This document shows, piece after piece, positions 23,691-54,450 of a DNA stretch of 64,000 nucleotides. Each line of letters starts with the position of its first letter. Positions within the stretch are counted from its first letter, which is position 1. The notes beneath the pieces are model-generated. The model saw only the letters and a list, made by a program, of their open reading frames with translations, made no database searches and had not been told where the DNA came from. Origin of the DNA: Vitreimonas sp. (GTDB lineage Bacteria; Patescibacteriota; Microgenomatia; UBA1400; PJMF01); assembly GCA_035627515.1 (NCBI GenBank), contig DASPLQ010000012.1, positions 778,331-842,330 of the forward strand. Direction: 5' to 3'. A program made the position numbers and the translations under genes.

Positions 23691-23737
23691 ACTTTTACTT
23701 GCTTTATAAAGGTTTTTTCTGAGATACTGATGGGATG
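23691..23737 (+). promoter_or_regulatory. conserved promoter cassette copy 1. Extended -10 (TGaGATACT) ending 6 nt before the ATG predicts a leaderless transcript.
   Basis: ACTTTTaCTTGCTTTaTAaAGGtTTTTTCTGAGATACTGaTGggATG. 35 of 43 positions identical to copy 2 (25634..25680). Confidence 0.45.
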
Positions 23738-25627
23738 TTTGTTGTTGAAGATGATTTAGCACATTTAGCCGAGACTCAGCCTGCTACTCCAAAAGTTGTC
23801 GACCCTACTCCGGTTCACAACGATACCGCTCCCACGGAGCCAGTTCTAAAAAAATCCCACATCCACAGTGACAAGGAACTTCGAGATGGAATTCAAGACG
23901 AACTTGATGCCTTACACCAAGATCCAGAGGAGTTATTAGCAGAGTTATTGCCTAGCGCTAGGCCGAGGGTGGAGAAATTAGCAGCTTTTTTAGCAGATAA
24001 ATTATTCAACAACTTTGCTGTCGGCGATAACGATTTAATAGGTTTGCTAGCTCAAGAGCCAGAGAGAATAATGAACTTCTATGGAAAGAAAGATGATGAA
24101 GTTGACGCGGAGGATTTACGACTCAAATTAACAACAGATTACCCCACTTTAGCTTTTGATTACGAACTAAATAGTGTGGGGATTGAGAGTGTTTTAACTA
24201 AACTTGTCGGGGTTATGAAGTCGCATCCTGAAGCTTTTGGGTATACCTTTCACGAATTAGAGTGGGCGACAACGTTACTCTATAAAAAGTTAGAAGAAAG
24301 ATATGCTGCCGGCCAGATGACAATTGCACAAAAGAAAGTAGGTGAAGTAGTGTTACTTTACCTTTTCACTGATAGCATTTGGTTTAAAGATGAGGTTTTT
24401 CTGAGTGATTGGCGAAATACGATCCCAGTAGGTCTTGACCACCCTGTTAGATACAATGCCGTACGTCACTCATTGGCAGTTTCTATCGCCGATTTTTGTA
24501 GGCAACATTTAGACATGGCACAAAACAAAATCCTTAGCGAGGAGGAGGAAGATAAATTATTTAAGGAGTTTAAAGAGCGTTTTCAAGGTCATAACTACGC
24601 TCAAGTATTCGGGGCGATCCAAAAAGTTTGGTATTATTTTGAGGCTACCACTAATGATAGACGGGCAGCGACCATTTTACATTCTTTAGCTTCCGAGCTA
24701 GCTTGGTATGCTAAGCCCAATAAAGGGGAAGTGTGGGATAAACTAAAAAAGACCAAGATCAAGTTAACTCCTGAACAGAAGCGGTATTATGCTGAGTTAT
24801 CTAAGGCATTCTTTGATTCAGACGATTGGCACCATCTTCGCCCAGAACAGCCTCCACCCCAGTGGTTATTCAAAATAGTCAAAGGATTATTTATTGGTTT
24901 ATCGATTGGCTCTGTTCTCACCATCGGTGCTAAAGAAAATCCACAAAAAACCAACGAGATAGTTAACACTGCTGAAAATTATTATCAGCTCAGCGCTGAA
25001 GCCCTAGCTGAGTTTTTGCCGGATAGGTTTGGTGGGCACGATGTAGATCGATCAAGTGCTGAAGCCACCGCTGTGAGTTCCAACGAACAAAATAAGCCTG
25101 GTGCTACTAACTTTACAGAGCAAGTTAACACGCAACCGGAGACTAGGCCTACACAAAGTGTCCCCACCCAACCTGCTCAGCCTCCACCCGAGAGCCCACC
25201 AGTAGTGTCGGCGACCCCAGAAGTAGTTTTGCCCACTACTGGTTGGCATACTTTCGTTGGCATTGATTTACAAGGTTGGCAAACAGTCAAAGAGTGGGAA
25301 AACGGTGGTTTTGGTTGGCGCGCGCCGGTGATCGAGCTAACAGAGTTTTTCTTGCGTGAAGCTCACACTAACCCCCAGGGAGCTGAGTATTCATATGGTT
25401 TTAATCCTCATGCCAGTGATGCCGAAACTATTGAGTGGGCAGTTCGCGCTGCTCAGGCAGTGCAGAATCAACATCCTGAACTTGCAGGTACAGTTACACC
25501 GGGTAACCTTGATGAAACAATCACTCCCATCATAGCTGGCATCGAGGGTAGCGCCACGGCTATTACACCGGTGCCAGTGACCAATTACACCGGCCTTGTG
25601 GATCGCTTAACCCAACGCTTGCCATAA
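23735..25627 (+). CDS. large hypothetical bitopic membrane protein (630 aa)
   Basis: Single TM near the middle (LFKIVKGLFIGLSIGSVLTIG). C-terminal half is Pro/Thr/Gln-rich and then globular. No known domain. Confidence 0.5.
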   Translation: MFVVEDDLAHLAETQPATPKVVDPTPVHNDTAPTEPVLKKSHIHSDKELRDGIQDELDALHQDPEELLAELLPSARPRVEKLAAFLADKLFNNFAVGDNDLIGLLAQEPERIMNFYGKKDDEVDAEDLRLKLTTDYPTLAFDYELNSVGIESVLTKLVGVMKSHPEAFGYTFHELEWATTLLYKKLEERYAAGQMTIAQKKVGEVVLLYLFTDSIWFKDEVFLSDWRNTIPVGLDHPVRYNAVRHSLAVSIADFCRQHLDMAQNKILSEEEEDKLFKEFKERFQGHNYAQVFGAIQKVWYYFEATTNDRRAATILHSLASELAWYAKPNKGEVWDKLKKTKIKLTPEQKRYYAELSKAFFDSDDWHHLRPEQPPPQWLFKIVKGLFIGLSIGSVLTIGAKENPQKTNEIVNTAENYYQLSAEALAEFLPDRFGGHDVDRSSAEATAVSSNEQNKPGATNFTEQVNTQPETRPTQSVPTQPAQPPPESPPVVSATPEVVLPTTGWHTFVGIDLQGWQTVKEWENGGFGWRAPVIELTEFFLREAHTNPQGAEYSYGFNPHASDAETIEWAVRAAQAVQNQHPELAGTVTPGNLDETITPIIAGIEGSATAITPVPVTNYTGLVDRLTQRLP

Positions 25628-25633
25628 ATTCTG

Positions 25634-25680
25634 ATTGTTGCTTGCGTGTCAAAGGGTTTTTCTGAGATACTGGTGAAATG
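25634..25680 (+). promoter_or_regulatory. conserved promoter cassette copy 2 (leaderless-type, extended -10 TGaGATACT 6 nt before the ATG)
   Basis: TTGCTTGCgTgtcAAAGGgTTTTTCTGAGATACTGgTGaaATG. Confidence 0.45.
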
Positions 25681-27504
25681 CATGAAGCTCCGATAACTGC
25701 TGTTAACTTGCCACTTTCTACGGCCATTAGAACAGATGGTGTTCTGAGTCCTCAACAAGAGGATACTTTGAAGTATCGAAATAGAGCCGAACAAAAAGCA
25801 GAAGATTTGCTAAATAACATTATCGGGGGAAGAGACTTAACAGTAGTAATGGGGTATGTTACTACTGAACCTAAGGCTGTTAATGAAGTTGTTCCTGATT
25901 TTTCAATTCTATTTAATACTGAAGCCACAGGAACTTTAACATCTGCGGTGCCTGCAGTTTTATCTCATGACACGATTGTAACTGAAGGCGAAACCCGCCT
26001 GCACAACGGTTTGTATCATCAACTTTCTACTGAGAATCATAGTTTTCAAGGTTTAAAAATTAATCAAATAGGTGATGAATATGTCACTAAACTTAGTTCA
26101 CTTTTAATTGATAAATATGGGGTGAACTATACAGCGGAAGATGTAATTAGAGCACTTGATAAGCTCTTCACTAAAGTTTCTGGCGATTCAGATTTGGCTG
26201 AGAAGGCTCGAACTCAACTTAAAGCAGTCTTAGAAGCAACTAAAGCTAAACTCAAACATCGATTCGCCACTGTTTCAATTGAGAATAAAACAGCTCCAGT
26301 GGAGAGACTCGAGTTGCTTAAGCCTGGAAATAGGGCTGTCAGAATTGAACTCACGCACTTTTGTTTAACTGAAGGATTTCAAGTTGATAACTCGGAAGCT
26401 CAGCGATCAAAGTTTGTGGCCAAATTTTTAGCTGAATTTGATGGTTACCAACCTGGAGTTTTGCGACACTACTTAGCTATTCTTTACAAAGAGTTATCTG
26501 TTTTGCCCAGTGATATGGGAGTGGTAAAACAAAGTATTGATCTTCTTAACACAGCAATTCTGCGCCAACAGGTCGATAATAAGAACTGGAAGCATCAATC
26601 AGATTCTTCCAAGTTAGGTGTTGTTTTTAGTAAGTATCGATTTTATCGCGATTTCCAGCGTGAGGTAGCTGAGGCCTTAAAAAACAAGCAAAAAGCCACC
26701 GAGGTTGAAAAGCAGAAGGCGCTGCTTGAAAAAACAGCTGTAAGTGCTGAAATAAGAAAACCTGTTCTTTCACGAAAAATGCTTTGGGGTGGGGTCGTTT
26801 TCTTATTGGTTGGGGCCTGTGGTTTAGTTGAGGCATTTAACCCTGGTGCATTGACTCAAGCGCGAGCTAACTTTAATGATAATAATGAAAACTCATCTTC
26901 AACTTCGATGGTCAGTGAGTTGTTTGCAGATTTGTTAGCAGCAGAAAAACATATCGAGCATATTTTGAGTGATGAATATGTTCCAGCCTTAGTGAATGAT
27001 CCATATAAAGAAATGCGTGCCGCTGCGGCTTCGCCGATAGTACCTGAAGCGTCAGTAACTCGTAGTGAAGGGATGCAAGAGTTGCATCAACTGAGTCAAG
27101 ATTTAGCTCTAGCATCTTTGCGCGATCAGGTCACAGGGGGGTCGCCTGAACGCCAACGCTTAGTTGATTACGTACGTTGGACGATCAATATGTCATATAA
27201 TCGGCCTGGAGATTTTGCGCGGCTAGTGTCTATTACGGGGGTAAGTTGGAATCCAGAAAAGTTGGAAACATATTTGCGGATAGCTACTCGGATTGAGAAG
27301 TATCTGCCTGATTTACATCAACAGGTTATAACTGGTCAATCTGACATTTTAGGAGCAGTTCAGGCAAATATGGATGAGTTCCCAGAAGGTTTTGATGCTC
27401 GTGCAGTTGAGCATGACAATACCACTCCAGATGCTTCAATTTCAGGAGAAATTGATACAGAATTACTAGATAAACTGCAAACTCTGACTAAGATTGCTGG
27501 CTAA
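25678..27504 (+). CDS. large hypothetical bitopic membrane protein (608 aa), same architecture as the preceding gene
   Basis: Single central TM (MLWGGVVFLLVGACGLV). No known domain. Shares the upstream cassette with 23735..25627. Confidence 0.5.
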   Translation: MHEAPITAVNLPLSTAIRTDGVLSPQQEDTLKYRNRAEQKAEDLLNNIIGGRDLTVVMGYVTTEPKAVNEVVPDFSILFNTEATGTLTSAVPAVLSHDTIVTEGETRLHNGLYHQLSTENHSFQGLKINQIGDEYVTKLSSLLIDKYGVNYTAEDVIRALDKLFTKVSGDSDLAEKARTQLKAVLEATKAKLKHRFATVSIENKTAPVERLELLKPGNRAVRIELTHFCLTEGFQVDNSEAQRSKFVAKFLAEFDGYQPGVLRHYLAILYKELSVLPSDMGVVKQSIDLLNTAILRQQVDNKNWKHQSDSSKLGVVFSKYRFYRDFQREVAEALKNKQKATEVEKQKALLEKTAVSAEIRKPVLSRKMLWGGVVFLLVGACGLVEAFNPGALTQARANFNDNNENSSSTSMVSELFADLLAAEKHIEHILSDEYVPALVNDPYKEMRAAAASPIVPEASVTRSEGMQELHQLSQDLALASLRDQVTGGSPERQRLVDYVRWTINMSYNRPGDFARLVSITGVSWNPEKLETYLRIATRIEKYLPDLHQQVITGQSDILGAVQANMDEFPEGFDARAVEHDNTTPDASISGEIDTELLDKLQTLTKIAG

Positions 27505-27506
27505 AA

Positions 27507-27535
27507 TTGACAAACCTCCAGCCACCACTTACAAT
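27507..27535 (+). promoter_or_regulatory. consensus sigma70-like promoter of the alaS leader
   Basis: TTGACA -17 nt- TACAAT, immediately after the upstream stop codon. Confidence 0.6.
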
Positions 27536-27541
27536 TCAAGC

Positions 27542-27766
27542 AACAACTTAACAACAGCGATGAATGGAAGAATTTTGAGTTCATTTGAATTCAGAAGGGC
27601 CGCCCAGGAGCTGCCAGCGAAGAGCTGAGCCGGAAGTTTACAAAGTTCACCGTCAACAGAACTAGAGCCCTATGCCGAAATGGTTTAGGGGAACCAAGGT
27701 GGTACCACGAGAAGCCTCGTCCTTGTCCAGAACTAGAGTAGTTCAGGATGAAGACGAGGTTTTTTT
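27542..27766 (+). ncRNA. candidate T-box riboswitch leader controlling alaS
   Basis: About 260-nt leader. T-box-like sequence AACCAAGGUGGUACCACGAG (27690..27711; consensus AAUUAGGGUGGNACCGCG). It contains UGGU, which is complementary to an NCCA 3' end with an A discriminator base, as in tRNA-Ala. It overlaps the 5' arm of a long terminator hairpin (27715..27733 / 27741..27759) that is followed by UUUUUUU (27760..27766). Confidence 0.55.
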
Positions 27767-27803
27767 ATTGGCATAAAGAAAATTACTTAACCCGAAAGGT
27801 CAT

Positions 27804-29684
27804 ATGACACCGAATCAATTACGCGACAAGTATTTACAGTACTTTGAAAAACAAGGTCATGCTATTGTGCCGTCTTCACCCCTGGTGCCTGAAAATGACC
27901 CAACTACCTTATTTACAGGCTCAGGCATGCAGCCGATGGTGCCCTATCTATTAGGTCAGCCTCATCCCAAAGGCACTCGAATTGTAGATTCACAGAAATG
28001 TTTCCGGTCGCAAGACATTGAAGAAGTGGGTGACAATCGCCACACCACATTTTTTGAAATGTTGGGTAATTGGTCGCTGGGTGATTACTTTAAAAAAGAC
28101 CAGTTGCGATGGTTTTTTACTTTTTTGACTGACGAAGTGGGCTTAGATCCGCATCGTATTTTTGTGACGGTTTTCCGTGGCAGTGAAGAATTAGATATTC
28201 CTCGTGATAGCGAATCTGTTGCTGTCTGGAAGGAGTTGTTTGCAGAGAAGGGTATCGCAGCTACCGATATCGATTTTGCTGATCGCGATGGCATGCAAGA
28301 CGGCCGTATTTTTTACTACGAAGAAAAGAAAAACTGGTGGTCTCGAGCAGGTGTGCCCGCGAATATGCCGGCTGGTGAACCAGGGGGTCCCGATAGTGAA
28401 GTTTTTTATGACTTTGGCGCTGAGTTACATCTTCACGAAAACTCAACTTTCAAAACTGAACCCTGTCATGTGAATTGTGATTGCGGCCGCTTTTTGGAAA
28501 TTGGGAACTCAGTATTCATGCAGTACCAGAAACAGCCCGATGGTAGTTTCAACGAACTGCCACAGAAGAATGTTGATTTTGGCGGCGGTTTAGAACGCAT
28601 TCTAGCTGCTCATAATCAAGATGGAGATGTTTTTAACACTGAGCTATTTAGCCCGATTATGACCCAGCTCTCACAAGTCAGTGGCCAAGAATATCGCACT
28701 GCGGATGACAAGGTCAAACGTTCTTTTCGAGTGATTGCTGACCATCTGAAAGCAGCGACGATGTTAGCAGCCGATGGCGTATACCCAGCCAACAAAGAAC
28801 AAGGTTATTTTGCTCGGCGCTTGGTACGGCGCGCAGTGCGTTATGGCAGAATGATTGGCATTACGCAACCATTTGTGAGCCAAGTTGTGCAGGTCGTAGG
28901 TGAAATATATGAGCAGGCTTATCCCGAAGTTTTTGGTCAGTTAGAAAAAATTAAAACCGGCCTCAGTGATGAAGAACAAAAATTTAATAAAACCTTGGAA
29001 AAAGGTTTGCGAGAGATCGAAAAAATTGGTGAGCTGACGGGTGAGTCTGCCTTCAAGCTCTATGAAACCTATGGTTTTCCCTTGGAGTTGACAGAGGAAA
29101 TCGCTCAGGAGCGCGGCCAAATCGTGGATCGCGAAGCTTTTCGTTTGGCGTTCAATGAACACAAAGATAAATCACGGACCGCTTCGGCTGGCAAGTTCAA
29201 AGGTGGTCTGCAAGATCACTCAGAAGTGACGATTAAGTACCATACAGCTACACATTTGCTTCATGCTGCGTTGCGGCAGGTATTGGGTACCCATGTCCAA
29301 CAAAAAGGCTCTAATATTACGGCCGAGCGGTTACGATTTGATTTTTCTCACCAGCAGGCTATGACGGAACAAGAAAAGCAGCAGGTGGAACAACTCGTAA
29401 ATAACTGGATCAAGCAAGATTTGTCAGTCACGCGCCAAACGATGCTCAAACAAGAGGCACTCAATTCAGGCGCCATTGCTTTCTTTTTAGAAAAGTATCC
29501 CGATGAAGTTTCGGTCTATACAGTTGGCCAGGATCCTACTGGTAAACAAGGTGAGGGCTGGATTTCTAAAGAGTTTTGTGGAGGGCCACACGTAGAGCAC
29601 ACTGGGCAAATTGGACCGATCAAGCTTACAAAAGAACAAGCTACCTCAGCTGGCGTACGGCGGGTGTATATGGAGTTGGCATAA
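27804..29684 (+). CDS. alaS: alanyl-tRNA synthetase, short form lacking the C-terminal C-Ala domain (626 aa)
   Basis: Class II catalytic core (FTGSGMQP, GDNRHTTFFEMLGNWSLGDYFK). Editing-domain zinc motifs HTATHLLHAALRQ and CGGPHV are present. The protein ends ~250 aa short of canonical bacterial AlaRS. Confidence 0.85.
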   Translation: MTPNQLRDKYLQYFEKQGHAIVPSSPLVPENDPTTLFTGSGMQPMVPYLLGQPHPKGTRIVDSQKCFRSQDIEEVGDNRHTTFFEMLGNWSLGDYFKKDQLRWFFTFLTDEVGLDPHRIFVTVFRGSEELDIPRDSESVAVWKELFAEKGIAATDIDFADRDGMQDGRIFYYEEKKNWWSRAGVPANMPAGEPGGPDSEVFYDFGAELHLHENSTFKTEPCHVNCDCGRFLEIGNSVFMQYQKQPDGSFNELPQKNVDFGGGLERILAAHNQDGDVFNTELFSPIMTQLSQVSGQEYRTADDKVKRSFRVIADHLKAATMLAADGVYPANKEQGYFARRLVRRAVRYGRMIGITQPFVSQVVQVVGEIYEQAYPEVFGQLEKIKTGLSDEEQKFNKTLEKGLREIEKIGELTGESAFKLYETYGFPLELTEEIAQERGQIVDREAFRLAFNEHKDKSRTASAGKFKGGLQDHSEVTIKYHTATHLLHAALRQVLGTHVQQKGSNITAERLRFDFSHQQAMTEQEKQQVEQLVNNWIKQDLSVTRQTMLKQEALNSGAIAFFLEKYPDEVSVYTVGQDPTGKQGEGWISKEFCGGPHVEHTGQIGPIKLTKEQATSAGVRRVYMELA

Positions 29685-29723
29685 CTTTTGCTTGCTTTGT
29701 ACTAAAAAATTCTGCATACTAAC
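29685..29723 (+). promoter_or_regulatory. conserved promoter cassette copy 3 (TGcATACT extended -10), about 40 nt upstream of the 29765 gene
   Basis: ACTTTTgCTTGCTTTgTActAAAAAATTCTGcATACTAA begins right after the alaS stop, exactly as copy 1 begins after its upstream stop. Confidence 0.4.
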
Positions 29724-29764
29724 TTCAACACAGTTACTGTTGTGATGACTGTGGTGAAAGTTGT

Positions 29765-31603
29765 ATGTTTGCTCAAGGTGGTATCCCCGAAGAACATAAA
29801 GAAAAAAGTGAGTTACTCAAACTACCTGCTAGTGGGCATCGGTTGGATAACTTACCACAGCTGTTAAAAGAGCAAAAGTCTGCTGCGGAGTTGGCACAAA
29901 AGACTCATGAGGTAGTTGATGGATTAATTAATCCATCTTTAACTGCGCTTGCAACAGAAGCCTCTAAGAATGTTGAGGGTAATCCTGCTAACGCTTCGAA
30001 AAATCCGGTGGCAACAGAGATAAACGCGCTCTTACAGAAAGATTCTCCTTTACAGCTGCTAAAGGAGACAGCCGATCTCCAATTAGAACAAACGAACTCT
30101 ACATTAACCACCTTAGCTAATGATGCGATGACAGCACTGGGTTTTTTCCAGAATCGTGGTTTTTATGACAAATTTTCATCTCAGTATGATGTGGGAGGGA
30201 TCTTAGATGATCTTAAGACACCCGGAAAGACTCGAGTAGATTGGCTCAAAGACAATGCCGAGAAAATCGCCCATGCTTTAAAAGATGCGTGCGCTAAACA
30301 TTTTGAAATAGCTGACGGTGTTTTAGATCTCTATGCTCTTATTTTCCCGGGAAATCAAAAAATTATAAGATTACAGAGAATGCATCCTAACGGGAATGCT
30401 CCTGGTGAATTATGGTCAAGCGAAGACCTGCAAAGATTTGATAGAGACATGAAGGCAACTCAGCAAGATTTGAAGCCCAAGCTAGAAGAAATGGTAAGAA
30501 CCTGGCAGAAATTGGGTCACAATCCTTCACAAATTATGAACTTTTTAAATGGAGACTACAATCAAATGAGATTTGATGTGGAGTCAGTAAAAGGGCAACT
30601 GACAACTTTAATGCGAGACGTTGAGGCTCAACGACAGGCAGCTGAGGCGACTACGGCTGTTGGTCTACTGAGGTTCCTTGAGCAAGGGAATGATGCCGTA
30701 ATCAGTGTGGCAGCAGAGTCAGGTCTACAAAAAATACTCAAGCCTGACCAATATCAGAACTTAATTGATATTTTAAGTAACAACGCTCAAGCTAATGGTG
30801 GTGATAAAGTTTCACTCCTGCAGCTAGCCGCCTTTGAAGCTCATGGGGTTTCAACACAACAACTTATTAAAGATATTTTTCGAAGAAATCCGGCTCTAAT
30901 TATCAAACTTTCAGAGCAACTACAAGATTGGAGTCAAGTTGATGGTAGAAATCTCAGATTTGCCCAGCAGGTGAGTGAAAAATACTTGACTGGACTTAAA
31001 GCCAGAGCTGATAAAACTAAATCGCCAAGTGAAGCGTTGAGCTCTCTCAAGCAATATCTGACAGAAATGAGTCAGCCGGCGATCAAAGTCAAGGAAACAA
31101 GGGAGCAGGTGGAAAAGTCTATTGAGCGCTTTGATAACGATAAATTGCAAAACAGAGATGCCGCTGATACCTATGACGATTTGGCTAAGCTGGCATGTAA
31201 GTTATTGGGTATGGGTGAGCAAGAGACTTTACTTAATATGAACCCGCTTCTCGAAGCTTTTACGAGTAGAAATTTGCGCAGAGCGCTTTTAGCCCACTTG
31301 CCAGAAGGGTCCTCGGCCAGAGCTGAATATGCAAATTTCACCATCCTGTTGCCAATTGATGGGAACAGAAAGATGGAAATCAGTATTACAAGTGCTCTGA
31401 ATATCGCTTATATGAGCTTGAAAGCCCACCATCCAGATGGAGTGGGTACAGTGGGAGTGATGCTGGGTTATCAATTTAATGATAAAGGCGACAGGCCAAA
31501 AGTAACGCGAACCGCCTCAAGCCCAGTCTTTGGTTTGCAGGATGTGACTAAGAATCTTTTAATGATTAATGACAATGTCAAAAAAGTAGAAATTCCTAAG
31601 TAA
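29765..31603 (+). CDS. large hypothetical soluble protein (612 aa)
   Basis: No TM and no known motifs. Helical, Gln/Leu-rich N-terminal region. Confidence 0.5.
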   Translation: MFAQGGIPEEHKEKSELLKLPASGHRLDNLPQLLKEQKSAAELAQKTHEVVDGLINPSLTALATEASKNVEGNPANASKNPVATEINALLQKDSPLQLLKETADLQLEQTNSTLTTLANDAMTALGFFQNRGFYDKFSSQYDVGGILDDLKTPGKTRVDWLKDNAEKIAHALKDACAKHFEIADGVLDLYALIFPGNQKIIRLQRMHPNGNAPGELWSSEDLQRFDRDMKATQQDLKPKLEEMVRTWQKLGHNPSQIMNFLNGDYNQMRFDVESVKGQLTTLMRDVEAQRQAAEATTAVGLLRFLEQGNDAVISVAAESGLQKILKPDQYQNLIDILSNNAQANGGDKVSLLQLAAFEAHGVSTQQLIKDIFRRNPALIIKLSEQLQDWSQVDGRNLRFAQQVSEKYLTGLKARADKTKSPSEALSSLKQYLTEMSQPAIKVKETREQVEKSIERFDNDKLQNRDAADTYDDLAKLACKLLGMGEQETLLNMNPLLEAFTSRNLRRALLAHLPEGSSARAEYANFTILLPIDGNRKMEISITSALNIAYMSLKAHHPDGVGTVGVMLGYQFNDKGDRPKVTRTASSPVFGLQDVTKNLLMINDNVKKVEIPK

Positions 31604-43100: not shown

Positions 43101-43858
43101 AAGGTTTGCCTCGTGTGGAAGAGTTGTTTGAAGCTCGGATTCCTAAAACTCCAGCCTTAGTGGCTGAAGTAGCCGGAAAAGTTACGATCGCTGAGACAGA
43201 AGACGGCCGCATTTTGACCATCAAACCTACCAGTGAAGGTGTGGAAGAACGCAGCTATGCTGTGCCTAACAACGCCGTGTTGCTGGTCGGGGAGGGTGAT
43301 TTAGTCCATATGGGTGCGCAATTAAGCGGTGGTTCTATTGATGTCCGCGAGTTACTCCACGTCCGAGGGTTATTGGCTGCACAACAATACGTTGTCAACC
43401 AAATCCAAGCCGTGTACGAATCACAAGGCATTCCTATCCACGACAAGCACTTTGAAGTCATTGTCCGCAAGATGGGTGACAAACTGCAAATTGAAGCTGC
43501 GGGTGACACCGAGTTCTTAACTGGTGAAGTCATCGAACGCTCCAAGTTCATTGCCAACAATGATGCAGTCATCGCCGCTGGTGGTGAGCCTTCAACTGCT
43601 AAGGTCATGATCTTGGGTATTACCCGGTCATCACTCTTTACCAGTTCGTGGTTATCAGCTGCTTCATTCCAACACACTAAGAACGTGTTGACTGATGCCG
43701 CTTCCGCTGGAGCTGTCGATTACCTCGAGGGCTTGAAGGAAAACGTCATCATTGGTCGCTTAATCCCCACTGACTCAGAACGCGCCAGTTTGGATTATGT
43801 CCCACCAGTAGTGGCAGAAGAAATCACCAACACTGAAGAAGTGGTGATGGCAGCCTAA
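40106..43858 (+). CDS. rpoC: DNA-directed RNA polymerase beta' subunit
   Basis: Zn-binding CxxC...CxxC near the N-terminus, catalytic NADFDGD motif, trigger-loop and bridge-helix regions. The start is set at the ATG at 40106 (MKQIVDF), which has a GGAG SD. Confidence 0.95.
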   Translation: MKQIVDFSALQIKIASPQTIKSWSHGEVKKPETINYRSLKAEKDGLFDEKIFGPMKDYECYCGKYKRIRYKGIICDKCGVEVTQARVRRERMGHITLAAPVAHIWFFKGAPSKLSLLLDISPRNLSAIIYFSQYLVLEVNSDDKAQVIEQLDADLVAAQDELRAAAEKTLQKVKDDLDTDKAKLKEKVTNKETLELKTSELELKAKQVMATTKEQLITQLEQTEEIYKTVKGMVKKIRKGTILSEDEYLKLDEYNAADHLRVGMGAESVMELVRELDLDTLVEKLRVEMAESKGAKRIKATKRLRVVEGLRKASINAEWMFMSVLPVIPPDLRPMVQLSGGRFATSDLNDLYRRVINRNNRLKHLIELGAPDIILRNEKRMLQEAVDSLIDTTQARQSRRRATRRPLRSLSEMLKGKQGRFRQNLLGKRVDYSGRSVIVVGPELKLNECGLPKDMALEMFKPYVLRELIVQGVAPNVKSARHLLDRREPVVYDILEQVTRNHPVILNRAPTLHKLGMQAFFPQLIEGNAIRLHPCVCAGYNADFDGDQVAVHVPLTEEAQEEARQLMMATHNLLKPANGEPITVPNKEMAMGMYFYTSVDENVDPAPTIFASQDEAYHAYQVGIIGLRQLITIRLSVGGKSQLMKTTVGRLEFNDILPESLRFINEAVTAKKIKELVTTAIGSQPQHEVAILIDKIKNLGFSAATLSGLSVSVSDCQMLDEKDVIIGEANKKAEQVQENYLQGLITSDERRKLTFEIWMQTTDEVAEKTWNSYDENNAVKIMINSGGTRASKDQVKQLAAMRGLVVDPLGNIVEMPTKSNFRQGLTIFEYVTSARGSRKGLTDSALKTADAGYLTRRLVDVSHDVIIRLQDCETTDSLTLIKAERPDVFANRMVGRVVAQDVVIKGKTLITKGEVITVDISQQIDAAGATEIQVRSPLTCQAPKGMCAQCYGWDFSTRAIVEIGVPVGVVAAQSIGEPGTQLTMRVKHSGGIVGLDVTQGLPRVEELFEARIPKTPALVAEVAGKVTIAETEDGRILTIKPTSEGVEERSYAVPNNAVLLVGEGDLVHMGAQLSGGSIDVRELLHVRGLLAAQQYVVNQIQAVYESQGIPIHDKHFEVIVRKMGDKLQIEAAGDTEFLTGEVIERSKFIANNDAVIAAGGEPSTAKVMILGITRSSLFTSSWLSAASFQHTKNVLTDAASAGAVDYLEGLKENVIIGRLIPTDSERASLDYVPPVVAEEITNTEEVVMAA

Positions 43859-43881
43859 AAGTTCTGTAAAAGGAATTCAGA

Positions 43882-43918
43882 AAAGCCCTGGTCCGCCAAC
43901 TGGCGGATGGGGCTTTTT
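43882..43918 (+). terminator. intrinsic terminator after rpoC
   Basis: GCCCtgGTCCGCC-aact-GGCGGAtgGGGC hairpin followed by TTTTT. Confidence 0.7.
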
Positions 43919-43923
43919 GGTAG

Positions 43924-44130
43924 TTAGCGATACTTTTTACCTTGGGATTTGGGTCGCTCAGGATCATACATTGTGGGAGGCACCCCTCTTAATATCGCTA
44001 CTATTCTTCCTCGTCTTCTAATGAAAATGGGTTGTTGCTGAAAGTAGGCAATATGGAGCAACTCGAAGAAGTCATTCCGAGCTTGTGTAGCTGTTACAAA
44101 GATACGGCTGCGGTTGTAAATAGATTTCAT
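43924..44130 (-). CDS. Phd/YefM-family antitoxin-like protein (68 aa), with no cognate toxin gene adjacent
   Basis: N-terminal ~50 aa (VTATQARNDFFELL...QPIFIRRRGRIVAILRGV) fits the Phd/YefM pattern. TTGCAT direct repeats (operator-like) lie just upstream on its strand. Its 3' end overlaps the rpoC terminator. Confidence 0.5.
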   Translation of the reverse strand: MKSIYNRSRIFVTATQARNDFFELLHIAYFQQQPIFIRRRGRIVAILRGVPPTMYDPERPKSQGKKYR

Positions 44131-44210
44131 ATACGTACTTTATAGGAAATTTCTTGCATTAAGCTTGCATACAGCAAACTCTACCTATCTCAGTATCAAC
44201 CTGTAGAAAA

Positions 44211-44291
44211 GTGAACCTGGACACTGTCTATCGTGTGCAACATGTACATTTTGACTGCAATGACTTGTGTCCAGGCGAACTTCTAAAGGAA
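44211..44291 (+). repeat. copy B of the ~76-nt conserved intergenic element (copy A at 8652..8735)
   Basis: Contains a 9-bp stem CCTGGACAC/GTGTCCAGG around the conserved core ATGTACATTTTGACTGCAATGAC. Same orientation as copy A. Confidence 0.55.
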
Positions 44292-44378
44292 GTGGTCAAG
44301 GCATAAAAAAGCAGCTCATCACAAGGTGTAAAACACAACCTGGTATAATACACATTCATTACTCAATAAGTAATAAAT

Positions 44379-44612
44379 ATGTGTAAAGTAGAGCGGGTGA
44401 GACAAGAGTTACTACAGAGGTTAGATGCTGGCCAAAGTCCTGCCAGACTTCATGAGTGGTTAGCTGAGGAATTTAATGCGGCAGCTTTTGAAGATGATGA
44501 TCCCATTGATTGGGAGGCTTACGATGCTTTATTCATGATGTGCCCGTTGCCTCCTACACGCAGTCAATTAGAATTGGAAACTGTCTTGGACGAGACACCT
44601 TTTACGAGGTGA
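44379..44612 (+). CDS. hypothetical acidic protein (77 aa)
   Basis: ORF with a TATAAT-like box ~30 nt upstream. No motif. Confidence 0.3.
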   Translation: MCKVERVRQELLQRLDAGQSPARLHEWLAEEFNAAAFEDDDPIDWEAYDALFMMCPLPPTRSQLELETVLDETPFTR

Positions 44613-44639
44613 CATGTTTTTAACACAATTCTTTCACTA

Positions 44640-44668
44640 TTGGCTAAGAATTCCTCTTATGTTACAAT
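44640..44668 (+). promoter_or_regulatory. sigma70-like promoter for rpsL-rpsG
   Basis: TTGGCT -17 nt- TACAAT, about 45 nt upstream of rpsL. Confidence 0.55.
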
Positions 44669-44714
44669 CAACGCCTGACTAAAAATAGTTTATAAGTATA
44701 TCTGGAAGTCACGA

Positions 44715-45125
44715 ATGCCAACCATTAACCAACTGATTCGAAAAGGTGGACGGACAAGTAAAGTGAAACGCATCAAAGCTACTGCTTTGCGCCGTAGTTT
44801 TAACACGATTACTAACAGTCCTGTCAAAACCACTAACCCTCAAAAACGAGGTGTGTGTACCGTGGTTAAAACCATGACTCCTAAGAAACCTAACTCAGCC
44901 TTACGTAAAGTAGCTCGTGTCCGCTTGTCCAACAAGATGGAAGTCACGGCTTACATCATGGGTGAAGGTCATAACTTAGCTGAACACAGTATCGTCTTAG
45001 TTCGTGGTGGTCGGGTCAAAGACTTACCTGGTGTGAAGTATCACATCGTCCGCGGTAAATTTGACTGTGCTGGTGTCAATGGTCGTAAGACCAGTCGTAG
45101 TAAATACGGCGTCAAGAAAAGTTAA
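44715..45125 (+). CDS. rpsL: 30S ribosomal protein S12
   Basis: [13 protein letters not shown]...conserved [10 protein letters not shown] and the [12 protein letters not shown] loop. Confidence 0.95.
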
Positions 45126-50184: not shown

Positions 50185-50628
50185 ATGGTTATTGAGCAGT
50201 TAAGCAAGCCAGATTTTAGCAATTTCATTAACTATACTATTCAATATTGGGAACTAATTGATAAATTTAATAAAAAAAATGAGAGCTTTGAGGAAGAGGA
50301 TGTGGAGACATTTCTAGGTGTATGTGCGCTATTAATTGAGTTTGCCCGTTTAGATAGAGAAGTGCAGCCGGCGGTAATCAGAATGTTTACCGGTGTGATC
50401 GATGAGACTGAAAGGCCCTCATCATCTAATGCATTAACTGAAGAGCAAAAACGGCAACAGGAAATCTTTCAAGCCTGGTTTGAGACAGAAATTTCATTGG
50501 CATTGTTGGTAGAGAATGCACACACTTTTAAAGAAGCCTTGCGCAAACTTAAAGTTAGTGCCGATCGTCCGATTATGAAAATCTTGCAAAACAGAAAGAG
50601 AACCACTCATGCAAAGCTGGCGAGTTAG
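50185..50628 (+). CDS. hypothetical protein H4 (147 aa), member of a family of small proteins interleaved in the str/S10 region
   Basis: Shares the FINYTIQ and EEDVETFLGVCALLIEF segments with H6 and H7 (FINEIRT / DDELETFFPIIAMIF). Confidence 0.45.
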   Translation: MVIEQLSKPDFSNFINYTIQYWELIDKFNKKNESFEEEDVETFLGVCALLIEFARLDREVQPAVIRMFTGVIDETERPSSSNALTEEQKRQQEIFQAWFETEISLALLVENAHTFKEALRKLKVSADRPIMKILQNRKRTTHAKLAS

Positions 50629-51322
50629 GATGGAGAATGGAAGTAATTATCTGGAGAGAATGGCTCCCGATCAGCTTTCATTGCAGCCTCTTGTTTCATC
50701 ACTGCTGGAGTTAAAAGCTCCTAAGAGGCAGCGGCTGAGGTTGCGTCGTCAGCGCCAGTACTTTGTTTCATATCTTGATAAATTATCTTCACATGAGCTG
50801 CCATCGGCTGAGTTACAAGCAGAGTTAGAGACATTTATTCAATCTACCCATTCACTTTACTTGGAAACACTGACCTTAATTGATAGTAGTTTTGGATCAG
50901 CTACGGAAGCTGAAATAAAAATCAAAAGTGAGCAGCGGAAAAATGGGGAGATTATTACTGTAAGATCAGCTGCAGAGACAAAAAGATTAATTGATCTTGA
51001 GTATTTGTTTTTTTGTTACTCGCGGTGGGCGGCGGTGTTGGTGCGTGAGCGATTTGTGGAGGCACTCCAGAATATCGAAGATGAGCTTACAGTGACCGGG
51101 GCTGTAATTTGTAGTGAGAGCGAGCACGTGGAGGGAGTAGGAGCACACCAGAGTTTTATGGAGATATATATTGAAGTTCCTCTCACTACCCTTAACCAAA
51201 CTTTGGCTATTCTTGAGAAAATAGGTATTACGTACGATCTTTCAACTCTGCAATCCACTGATGGGATAGTAGCCTTAGAAATTTTCAATGAACCCGCTTT
51301 TTCAAGCAGTACTAAGGGATAG
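50609..51322 (+). CDS. hypothetical protein H5 (237 aa)
   Basis: Overlaps H4 by 20 nt. Contains an AELETFIQ segment resembling the family motif. Confidence 0.45.
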   Translation: MQSWRVRMENGSNYLERMAPDQLSLQPLVSSLLELKAPKRQRLRLRRQRQYFVSYLDKLSSHELPSAELQAELETFIQSTHSLYLETLTLIDSSFGSATEAEIKIKSEQRKNGEIITVRSAAETKRLIDLEYLFFCYSRWAAVLVRERFVEALQNIEDELTVTGAVICSESEHVEGVGAHQSFMEIYIEVPLTTLNQTLAILEKIGITYDLSTLQSTDGIVALEIFNEPAFSSSTKG

Positions 51323-52844: not shown

Positions 52845-53369
52845 ATGTCATTTTTACTCAAGTATCGTGAGCTTGGTATTTTTCCCCACCCATGGAAATG
52901 GAGAGACTATGAAGTGGGTGATGATGTGCGCTTATTAGCCTTCATTAATGAAATCAGAACGCCATTTACTTCCAAAAGGCGAATCAAAAAAGTTATTAAG
53001 CAATTGCAGTCCGTCGATCAAATTCATCAATTAAGTAGCCAAGATGATGAGTTAGAGACTTTTTTCCCTATCATTGCCATGATCTTTAGAAGGGAGTTAT
53101 CAGACAGTTTACAAAAAGTTATTATCCAGCCCCCCCAGCAGGTGTTTCGCCTCAAACCTGACCGTGAACTTGACCTGACTCAATTAGTCCGTATTAGCGC
53201 TAGCAGCACCGCCCCCGATAGCAGAGAACTGCAAGGCTATAAGTTTCATCCTTATTATGTGGAAACTGAAGCTGGAGCGATCAGTCTGGCCGCTAAAGTA
53301 CCTCAGCTAATTTTTGAGGATATTAGCTATATTATTTATCAAAAATTGTTGGCTGAAGCCAAGAAATAA
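52845..53369 (+). CDS. hypothetical protein H6 (174 aa), tandem paralog of H7
   Basis: Shared segments with H7: KYRE, ELETFFPIIAMIF vs ELELFFPLMAQLF, and HPYYVETEAGAISL vs FRYYAETELGYLTL. Confidence 0.5.
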   Translation: MSFLLKYRELGIFPHPWKWRDYEVGDDVRLLAFINEIRTPFTSKRRIKKVIKQLQSVDQIHQLSSQDDELETFFPIIAMIFRRELSDSLQKVIIQPPQQVFRLKPDRELDLTQLVRISASSTAPDSRELQGYKFHPYYVETEAGAISLAAKVPQLIFEDISYIIYQKLLAEAKK

Positions 53370-53417
53370 AATACTCACTGATTACACACATCAAATGGAG
53401 TGCTAGAATAACTGACT

Positions 53418-53933
53418 ATGAGCATGAGAGTTGGGGTAAAGTACCGAGAGTTTATAGAATTCAGTGACATCGAAAGATGGTCAGTGTTTAAATCAAAACC
53501 AGAAGCCTACGCATTTATCTCAACTATAACTCAACCCTTAGATACAGAGGAGTACCTACTCAGTATTATTGATTCTTTGGAAGATTATCGCCAACTGCAA
53601 GAAGTTCTCCCAGAAAGTAGAGAGCTGGAATTATTTTTCCCCCTCATGGCTCAGCTTTTTATTTTAAACAACCAAGAGCATGGCATACGGGTTCCACAAC
53701 GGTCTGCCAATGAGCGATACCGACGGGGGGCAAATTTAATAGTCCATCAACCATCAAATCGCTCTGTGCAAATTTACCCCTCACCTAAAGCACTGCACCC
53801 GTATGATGCTCCACACATATTCCGCTATTATGCTGAGACGGAATTAGGATATTTAACACTGCAAACGCGTGCGACTGATGCCGAGCGAAATAGTCTCAGG
53901 GAGATAATTTTTCAAGTGTTGAAGGGAACTTAA
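53418..53933 (+). CDS. hypothetical protein H7 (171 aa), tandem paralog of H6
   Basis: See H6. Confidence 0.5.
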   Translation: MSMRVGVKYREFIEFSDIERWSVFKSKPEAYAFISTITQPLDTEEYLLSIIDSLEDYRQLQEVLPESRELELFFPLMAQLFILNNQEHGIRVPQRSANERYRRGANLIVHQPSNRSVQIYPSPKALHPYDAPHIFRYYAETELGYLTLQTRATDAERNSLREIIFQVLKGT

Positions 53934-54123: not shown

Positions 54124-54450
54124 ATGGCAGCGACCACATCTACAGCTAGCTACAAAATCCGAGTCCGGCTTAAGGCCTATGATCATCGGGTGATTGACGA
54201 AGCTTCTAAAAAGATTTTAGAAACTGCTTTATCAACCGGTGCTAAAGTAATTGGTCCGGTGCCTTTGCCAACTAACCACAAATGGTTTACTGTTTTGGCA
54301 TCACCACATACTGATAAAGATGCTCAAGAGCATTACACAATCCGAACGCACAAACGCTTAATTGAAATTGTCAATCCAACTGGTAAAACTATTGATTCTC
54401 TAATGCACTTAGAGTTACCAGCCGGTGTTGATATTCAAATTAAGATGTAG
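54124..54450 (+). CDS. rpsJ: 30S ribosomal protein S10
   Basis: [15 protein letters not shown]...conserved S10 fold sequence. Confidence 0.9.

Follow-up and report, generated by a model that had tools for sequence, protein, structure and literature searches.

The stretch of DNA analyzed here, referred to as the window, covers 64 kb of a 1,409,795-bp contig (1.4-Mb genome), and the local searches described below cover all or part of it. It contains orf68, a minus-strand reading frame of 68 codons with an ATG start (43924..44130), whose position and translation are exactly those given in the original prediction. The flanking genes are rpoC (TIGR02386, 1511 bits) and rpsL (TIGR00981, 199 bits), and the wider gene order, with rpoB upstream and rpsG and fusA downstream, is that of the rpoBC-str gene cluster. 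The features of the locus are as follows.

43859..44714 (unstranded): rpoC–rpsL spacer of 856 nt, holding orf68, a hairpin and orf77; ~0.8 kb of it is lineage-specific
43881..43918 (unstranded): bidirectional intrinsic terminator, common to rpoC (plus strand) and orf68 (minus strand)
43924..44130 (minus strand): orf68, a 68-aa stand-alone Phd/YefM-type N-terminal domain; NCBI hypothetical protein VD999_04250
43927..43989 (minus strand): tail of orf68, codons 48–68; proline-rich, basic and predicted to be disordered, on the basis of low pLDDT and the alignment
43990..44103 (minus strand): predicted folded core β1-α1-α2-β2-β3 of orf68, codons 10–47; DNA-binding/dimerization domain according to AlphaFold2 and Foldseek
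44137..44144 (minus strand): −10-like box TATAAA overlapping TAAAGT, 6–8 nt before the ATG; candidate promoter
44153..44170 (unstranded): paired 7-mer CTTGCAT-N4-CTTGCAT, candidate operator, −24 to −41 relative to the start codon
44209..44282 (unstranded): imperfect inverted repeat with 16-nt arms, between orf68 and orf77; alternative operator candidate
44379..44612 (plus strand): orf77, an ORFan of 77 aa, acidic and predicted to be helical, divergent from orf68

An insertion between rpoC and rpsL

The distance between rpoC and rpsL is unusually large at this locus. Across 150 related loci, the spacer had a median length of 76 nt (quartiles 59–125) and reached at least 500 nt in 12 of the 150; the enlarged spacers that we examined in relatives hold unrelated lineage-specific ORFs. 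In the two closest genomes (L001 and L002), the spacer is ~60 nt long and carries just the conserved rpsL promoter GTAGTACAATACCAA. The orf68 locus is a lineage-specific insertion of ~0.8 kb. The C-terminal 299 residues of rpoC, used as a query, retrieved Patescibacteria/CPR genomes alone (Pacebacteria, Paceibacterota and Microgenomates), with a best identity of 84% among species representatives and 79% among metagenome contigs. Near the rpoC 3′ end, a Phd-like ORF or similarity to orf68 or orf77 was found in none of 160 loci (80 from genomes and 80 from metagenomes). For the original prediction, an ORF conserved in no relative would have counted as a refutation, and the outcome is divided: there is no syntenic orthologue among the 160 loci, which is weak evidence given that the nearest rpoC is only 84% identical, but more remote homologues of about the same length occur in other genomes, as described below.

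Within this insertion, orf68 is, in our reading, a genuine small gene and is presumably expressed. Its codon score was the highest of the six frames and exceeded that of 96% of spurious ORFs, but 95% of real gene chunks scored higher; so low a score would be expected of a gene that is foreign or weakly expressed. The gene is at present annotated as "hypothetical" and, whether functional or a remnant, should not be called an antitoxin from its domain alone.

The second gene of the insertion, orf77, has signals of its own, namely an extended −10 box TGGTATAAT at 44342–44350 and a terminator at 44596–44611, and a codon score above that of 99% of spurious ORFs. Database searches with orf77 returned itself alone, with no Pfam, NCBIfam, PADLOC or PHROG match, and the fold matches of its helical model all had a probability of ≤0.15. 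We considered orf77 as a possible partner of orf68 and rejected it, given its ORFan status and a helical model that is uninformative. A phage or defense origin was likewise rejected for both genes, since neither orf68 nor orf77 matched any PHROG or PADLOC model. Two 12-nt inverted repeats, complementary at 11 of 12 positions, lie near the ends of the insert (43867–43878 and 44648–44659). We discounted them as evidence of a mobile element, because, by our estimate, chance alone would yield roughly one pair of this kind in a region of this size, and both arms hold the self-complementary GAATTC.

At its 3′ end, orf68 meets the terminator of rpoC, as originally proposed: its stop codon lies 5 nt from the hairpin at 43881–43918. 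This inverted repeat, AAAAGCCC...GGGCTTTT, is preceded by an A-run and followed by a T-run, and was called on the plus strand by a terminator scan. Read on the minus strand, the hairpin is followed by TTTTCTG. Flanked in this way by an A-run and a T-run, the same hairpin can terminate both convergent genes.

A Phd/YefM-type domain without its C-terminal part

The original prediction assigned orf68 to the Phd/YefM N-terminal fold. Against the curated models, the protein scored below threshold both with PF02604 (17.2 bits, gathering score 29.8, E = 0.0044) and with TIGR01552 (19.4 bits, cut-off 20.8, E = 4.8e-4), and a word-indexed search of 5.8 billion proteins matched orf68 to itself alone. 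An exhaustive phmmer search of 1.84 billion proteins (cluster representatives) identified four relatives besides orf68 itself, P0002, P0003, P0004 and P0005. The best of these is P0002, a protein of 73 aa with 46% identity (E = 3.6e-7), and P0003 was matched at E = 2.4e-4. P0004 and P0005 are proteins with tandem Phd domains that match PF02604 at 4e-26 and 3e-10, respectively; through P0004, orf68 is therefore tied to PF02604 transitively.

A profile built from orf68 and its relatives retrieved 1092 proteins, with PF02604 present in nearly all of the 120 listed, and the same profile matched solely Phd/YefM-fold antitoxins in the PDB (VapB46, Phd, RelB and YefM). A cleaner test was provided by hhalign, in which the query profile was restricted to orf68, P0002 and P0003 and the target was an alignment of 39 PF02604 proteins that are bona fide (ParE-linked) Phd/YefM antitoxins. 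This comparison gave a probability of 98.3% and E = 1.5e-14 over 46 columns. Judged by these alignments, the resemblance of orf68 to Phd/YefM is beyond chance despite the sub-threshold curated scores. The homology is confined to the N-terminal DNA-binding/dimerization core, residues ~10–47.

The predicted structure is in agreement with the sequence evidence. AlphaFold2 was given a 56-sequence alignment of family members, so the model leans towards the family fold; it reached a pLDDT of 93–96 at residues ~11–50 and comprised β 10–13, α 14–19, α 21–30, β 35–39 and β 42–47. In a Foldseek search of the PDB, the best 45 matches were all Phd/YefM-fold proteins (N-terminal domains of Phd, YefM, RelB and VapB46), with an rmsd of 0.6–2.3 Å over ~40 residues and a probability of ~1.0. 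The best overlap was with 6jqy, at an rmsd of 1.0–1.3 Å over 41–44 residues and a target-normalized TM-score of 0.83–0.86. Isolated N-terminal domains are among these matches (4zlx from Phd and 6jqy from VapB46), and since such domains, including Phd 1–57, exist in isolation, a core of the size of orf68 is a known autonomous unit. In size and secondary structure, orf68 equals the truncated 4zlx, 3hs2 (Phd to residue 57) and 6jqy; those constructs, which show that a domain this small can fold by itself, were made in the laboratory by shortening two-domain antitoxins, whereas orf68, known from sequence, stands alone as a natural gene. The fold assignment of the original prediction is thus upheld by hhalign, the phmmer relatives, the PDB profile matches and Foldseek, and sensitive profile comparison does place orf68 in the family: it is homologous to the Phd/YefM N-terminal domain and has its fold.

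In solved Phd/YefM members, the β-α-α-β-β domain dimerizes and binds operator DNA, and in full-length structures helix α3 contributes to the dimer. R18 and R39 of orf68 fall in columns of the family alignment where R is invariant or nearly so, and align with R10 and R31 of YefM, whose sequence we checked against PDB 2a6q. These two YefM arginines are essential for operator DNA binding (PMC4803016, PMC3920265). The orf68 core is uninterrupted, with zero internal stops, and keeps the RRG motif as well as the key arginines. At two positions where conservation in the closest subfamily reaches at least 90%, orf68 has another residue (N26 to H and R27 to I); neither position is conserved in Phd or YefM themselves, and these changes are a mild sign of divergence and could reflect decay. 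We infer that orf68 dimerizes and binds DNA.

The resemblance ends where the DNA-binding core ends. All orf68 matches stop at residue ~47–54, and pLDDT falls to 74 and then to 56 in the tail. Full-length relatives have 85–101 aa, adding an EDLxxLExLED helix and a C-terminal segment, and an alignment with 55 family members revealed no counterpart of either in orf68, which thus lacks both helix α3 and the toxin-binding C-terminus. In Phd/YefM antitoxins, wrapping and neutralizing the toxin is the job of the C-terminal segment. The term "antitoxin" in its functional sense, as used in the original prediction, is therefore not supported, with homology and confident fold ending at ~47 and both α3 and the neutralizing segment missing. 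Lacking the toxin-neutralizing C-terminus and an adjacent toxin gene, orf68 would be unable to act as a canonical antitoxin.

The relatives include other short or toxin-less forms. P0002, encoded on a contig of 517 bp, shares with orf68 the start of the tail, LRGV...Y.P, which, read from the sequences, argues that the short Phd architecture of the two proteins predates the insertion. P0003 has 51 aa under the standard bacterial code (code 11), and the gene 3′ of it (179 aa) matched no Pfam family and nothing in the window. P0094 has 67 aa, and the ~490 nt downstream of its gene are free of called genes. By contrast with these short forms, the full-length relatives P0056 and P0041 have a ParE gene directly downstream, and P0092 has a PIN gene in this position. 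Three Dojkabacteria proteins, P0013, P0018 and P0010, have 92–95 aa and ~39% identity to orf68 over the core. Their genes occur on at least 21 contigs in the order ABC ATPase, Phd-like gene, glycosyltransferase, beside rpoB and with no toxin. Toxin-less Phd-domain genes are thus not rare in this lineage, which makes a stand-alone orf68 likelier than a purely local truncation.

Candidate regulatory elements and the search for a partner

The TATAAA box described in the original prediction is indeed present, at 44139–44144 on the minus strand and 8 nt from the ATG; the overlapping TAAAGT lies 6 nt from the ATG. The orf68 start has no Shine-Dalgarno sequence, as is also the case for most genes of the window. 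A TANNNT motif ending 5–10 nt before the start codon was found in 15 of the 58 window genes, compared with a background of 9%. The placement of the orf68 box fits this habit of the genome, and such placement points to transcripts that are leaderless or nearly so. The orf68 box went uncalled in a consensus promoter scan, for want of a −35 match.

The TTGCAT direct repeats spaced 11 nt, proposed as an operator, are also present and proved to be longer than first described. The two copies (44154–44159 and 44165–44170, with a period of 11 nt) are really 7-mers, reading ATGCAAG on the orf68 strand. Their palindromic TGCA cores lie one helical turn apart, at the expected place of the −35 element, and the pair occurs a single time in the 64 kb. 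A 7-mer direct repeat with a period of 9–13 is found in 2.3% of random 60-nt windows here, in a test that was devised post hoc. The paired ATGCAAG is thus a mildly unusual, weakly significant motif that is suggestive of an operator, and both the orf68 operator and any regulatory target of the protein are putative. In E. coli, the yefM-yoeB promoter is overlapped by paired TGTACA hexamer palindromes, 12 bp apart (PMC3920265). It is by analogy with these palindromes that the orf68 pair is taken as a candidate operator, although its 7-mers are directly repeated and their palindromic cores measure 4 bp.

The inverted repeat at 44209–44282 would, if transcribed, form a hairpin of −31.5 kcal/mol (z = −4.0 against shuffles), and its link to orf68 is uncertain. 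At the apex of the hairpin (44238–44253), ~110 nt upstream of orf68, lies the near-palindrome CAACATGTACATTTTG, whose core TGTACA matches the hexamer that makes up the YefM operator in E. coli (PMC3920265); this likeness may be a coincidence. The hairpin is unique in the window and is bracketed by neither a promoter nor a terminator.

As the original prediction stated, no toxin ORF follows orf68, whose downstream side is occupied by the rpoC terminator and rpoC itself. None lies upstream either, where the longest stop-free frame on the orf68 strand has at most 44 codons. A degraded toxin frame, for which a check upstream had been suggested, was sought over 43859–44714 in all frames: the stop-free segments of at least 25 codons, compared with Pfam at E values up to 10, gave nothing relevant, and no frame of this interval held a trace of the missing antitoxin 3′ half. 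Across the 64-kb window, tblastn with the ParE toxins from two relatives' neighborhoods (L087 and L089) found nothing below E = 0.28, and the family HMM run on the six-frame translation matched orf68 alone, with no paralogue. The solitary status of orf68 therefore holds, with no toxin ORF or recognizable degraded frame in 43859–44714 and no ParE-like gene or paralogue in the 64 kb. The suggested type III or other non-protein partner fared less well: Tandem Repeats Finder detected no repeats in 43800–44800, and Rfam gave no match near orf68 at E values up to 1.

Interpretation of a toxin-less Phd/YefM-type gene

Our preferred reading, which we hold with about as much belief as doubt, is that orf68 was inserted laterally and encodes a mini-Phd protein that stands alone, binds DNA and probably regulates its own gene, and that is not a canonical antitoxin. 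On this reading, the lineage-specific insertion of ~0.8 kb would have brought orf68 into the rpoC–rpsL spacer. The gene would be transcribed in leaderless style from the −10-like box just before its ATG, with transcription stopped by the hairpin common to rpoC. The product would be a small dimeric DNA-binding repressor with a short disordered basic tail, and it may repress its own promoter via the paired ATGCAAG or the nearby palindrome. The homology and predicted fold, the two arginines, the short and toxin-less relatives and the gene-like signals favor this reading. Weighing against it are the lack of an orthologue in the relatives compared, the low codon score, the changes at N26 and R27, the loss of α3 with its part in the dimer, a structural model that leans on the family alignment, the missing −35 element and the weakly significant operator motif.

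Several known systems frame this proposal. With the Phd/YefM antitoxins (P1 Phd, E. coli YefM, P0056 and P0041), orf68 shares the β-α-α-β-β domain and the two arginines; unlike them, it has no α3, C-terminal segment or downstream toxin and falls below both curated thresholds. As in autoregulated TA operons (PMC3920265), the gene is small and a repeat motif overlies its putative promoter. Orphan antitoxins are widespread and have been read as degraded cassettes, regulators or anti-addiction modules (PMC7354431), and orf68 resembles them in being an antitoxin-family gene without an adjacent toxin in the 64-kb window. Most of those described are full-length, whereas orf68 lacks the toxin-binding part and lies in a Patescibacteria rpoBC-str cluster. 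Orphan antitoxin genes are thus already well documented (PMC7354431), and orf68 is a divergent, truncated new one. The Dojkabacteria genes resemble orf68 in being toxin-less Patescibacteria genes with no precomputed Pfam match and an adjacent RNA polymerase gene; they are longer and lie in a conserved gene string, whereas orf68 is confined to one genome and has another context.

The main rival is that a cassette of Phd/YefM with ParE (or with PIN, YoeB or Doc) once entered the rpoC–rpsL junction and then lost the toxin and the antitoxin 3′ half, so that orf68 is a functionless leftover in decay, with the surviving 5′ half open by chance or transiently. We consider this somewhat unlikely. The full-length relatives sit directly 5′ of ParE or PIN toxin genes, so the ancestral state is a two-gene cassette, and orf68 breaks off at the expected start of α3, immediately next to the terminator of rpoC. 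Two residues conserved in the subfamily are altered, the codon score is borderline, no other genome has the ORF, and in surveys most orphan antitoxins are reported to be degraded cassettes (PMC7354431). Decay sits less easily with a core that is intact and stop-free and keeps its arginines and RRG motif, with promoter-like and terminator signals in place, or with a P0002 that is equally short and has the same tail start; moreover, the toxin and the antitoxin 3′ half are traceless in all frames of 43859–44714.

An orphan antitoxin acting in trans, against a distant, mobile-element or phage toxin in the manner of anti-addiction, or as a heterodimer that tunes the system of a full-length Phd/YefM paralogue, appears quite improbable to us. 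In its favor are the wide occurrence of orphan antitoxins and their proposed role in anti-addiction (PMC7354431), together with a fitting domain family; our searches cover 64 kb of the 1,409,795-bp contig, which leaves room for partners elsewhere. Yet the neutralizing C-terminal region is missing, and this lack of a toxin-binding part disfavors the anti-addiction reading; in addition, neither a toxin nor a paralogue was found in the window, and no defense or phage model matched. It is very improbable, in our estimate, that orf68 is no gene but a frame left open by chance within inserted intergenic DNA, its likeness to Phd/YefM being fortuitous. Such a view could appeal to the two sub-threshold curated models, the word search of 5.8 billion proteins that returned orf68 only, and the missing Shine-Dalgarno and −35 elements. 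It is largely refuted already by the phmmer match at E = 3.6e-7 in 1.84 billion proteins and the hhalign match at E = 1.5e-14; furthermore, every sequence match and every confident PDB fold match falls in one fold family, and the orf68 frame tops the six-frame codon scores. Lowest in our estimation, and barely credible, stands the proposal that orf68 supplies the protein component of a system whose partner is an RNA (type III-like or a small RNA) encoded in the 248-nt gap between orf68 and orf77. The stable hairpin at 44209–44282 (z = −4.0) and the absence of a protein partner speak in its favor. Against it stand the lack of tandem repeats and of an Rfam match, a hairpin sequence that is unique in the window, and the lack of a promoter or terminator around it. 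Proteins of the Phd/YefM fold are, moreover, not known to partner RNA toxins or RNA antitoxins.

Should the preferred reading of a functional stand-alone protein be correct, orf68 would be a natural example of a Phd/YefM DNA-binding module working alone and would illustrate the recycling of toxin-antitoxin parts. Patescibacteria have tiny genomes with very few recognizable transcription factors, to which a functional orf68 would add a candidate regulator family. More speculatively, and with considerable doubt on our part, orf68 together with P0002, P0003, P0094 and the P0013 group may represent a recurrent domestication in Patescibacteria, yielding a toxin-free minimal transcription factor of ~50 residues. 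If such domestication has occurred, orf68, placed between the RNA polymerase and ribosomal protein operons, might in addition affect how far transcription reads through the rpoC–rpsL junction or runs antisense there. If orf68 is instead a remnant, the locus would show that this normally tight junction tolerates the insertion of mobile TA-type DNA.

The rpoC–rpsL junction as a site of extra sequence

The spacer that holds orf68, the 68-aa Phd/YefM N-terminal-domain gene, carries the following further features.

44209-44282: imperfect inverted repeat with 16-nt arms, apex at 44238-44253
43867-43878 and 44648-44659: 12-nt inverted repeat, 11/12 complementary, with GAATTC in both arms
44342-44350: extended -10 box of orf77 (TGGTATAAT), a perfect match 28 nt upstream of the gene
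44379-44612 (+): orf77, a 77-aa acidic ORFan divergent from orf68 (NCBI VD999_04255)
44596-44611: terminator-like hairpin at the 3′ end of orf77

The imperfect inverted repeat occurs once in the window, and its folding energy lies far below that of shuffles (z = -4.0). At its apex sits a near-palindrome, CAACATGTACATTTTG, with TGTACA inside, the hexamer that forms the core of the E. coli YefM operator (PMC3920265). A search of 5.8 billion proteins returned no homologue of orf77 other than orf77 itself, and a fold search with its predicted structure, which is modelled as helical, gave no match.

The rpoC–rpsL spacer reaches 0.5-2.9 kb in ~8% of relatives (L003, L007, L013, L020, L022, L027, L041, L100, L101, L120, L129 and L166). 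The seven enlarged spacers inspected (those from L003 to L041) hold unrelated, lineage-specific ORFs, with one 147/187-aa ORF family common to L022 and L020. Insertions appear to recur at this junction. The arms of the 12-nt inverted repeat lie almost exactly at the two ends of the additional sequence that separates rpoC from the rpsL promoter. We estimate that chance alone would give about one pair of this kind, so the repeat was rejected as evidence of a mobile element.

Homologues of orf68 on other contigs

On Dojkabacteria-type contigs (L082-L085, L090 and L175), a Phd-like gene of 92-95 aa (~4001-4279 in L082) has an ABC ATPase gene on one side and a gene for a GT4 glycosyltransferase on the other, adjoining rpoB, an arrangement conserved on at least 21 contigs. 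The gene is without a precomputed Pfam hit, and no toxin gene adjoins it; possibly it encodes a Phd-domain regulator that has been domesticated. Another homologue of orf68, P0003, lies on L081.

L081, 244-462: P0003, recorded length 72 aa

Under the standard bacterial code, P0003 meets a TGA stop after 51 aa, which the recorded product reads through as W. Related ORFs that have the motif QKxQQLDKLVEQSExILF in common lie to either side of P0003.

Flanking gene clusters

Downstream of the spacer, the rpsL–rpsG–fusA–tuf–rpsJ cluster, compact as a rule, is broken up by seven ORFs without family matches.

44715-45125: rpsL, ribosomal protein S12, 136 aa
45716-47800: three ORFs without family match, between rpsG and fusA
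50185-51322: two such ORFs, between fusA and tuf
52845-53933: two such ORFs, which separate tuf from a 108-aa ORF (at 54124) presumed from its position to be rpsJ

For the 270-aa member of the seven, no counterpart was found in 80 related loci. Residues 1-135 of S12 cover 121 of the 124 positions in the bacterial model. An insertion of ~14 residues is implied, and by eye it falls near residues 25-40.

Elsewhere in the window, several large ORFs follow one another.

23735-31603: four consecutive ORFs of ~610-630 aa each

The ORF at 27804-29684 is alanyl-tRNA synthetase-like, at only 626 aa; none of the remaining three matches a Pfam family. Nearly identical upstream sequences in the first two (TTTTTCTGAGATACTG) suggest that these arose by tandem duplication.

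Source organism and gene starts

Vitreimonas is an alphaproteobacterium. The public record of orf68 (P0001) bears the source name 'Vitreimonas sp.', which is probably a taxonomic mislabel, since the rpoC of the source groups only with Patescibacteria genomes (Pacebacteria/Microgenomates-like). Many of these Patescibacteria rpoC relatives are themselves labelled 'uncultured Pseudomonadales'.

Most genes of the window lack a Shine-Dalgarno sequence. At 15 of its 58 gene starts, a TANNNT box ends 5-10 nt ahead of the start codon; the background rate is 9%. This placement, together with the scarcity of Shine-Dalgarno sequences, suggests that leaderless or very short-leader mRNAs are frequent in the source organism.
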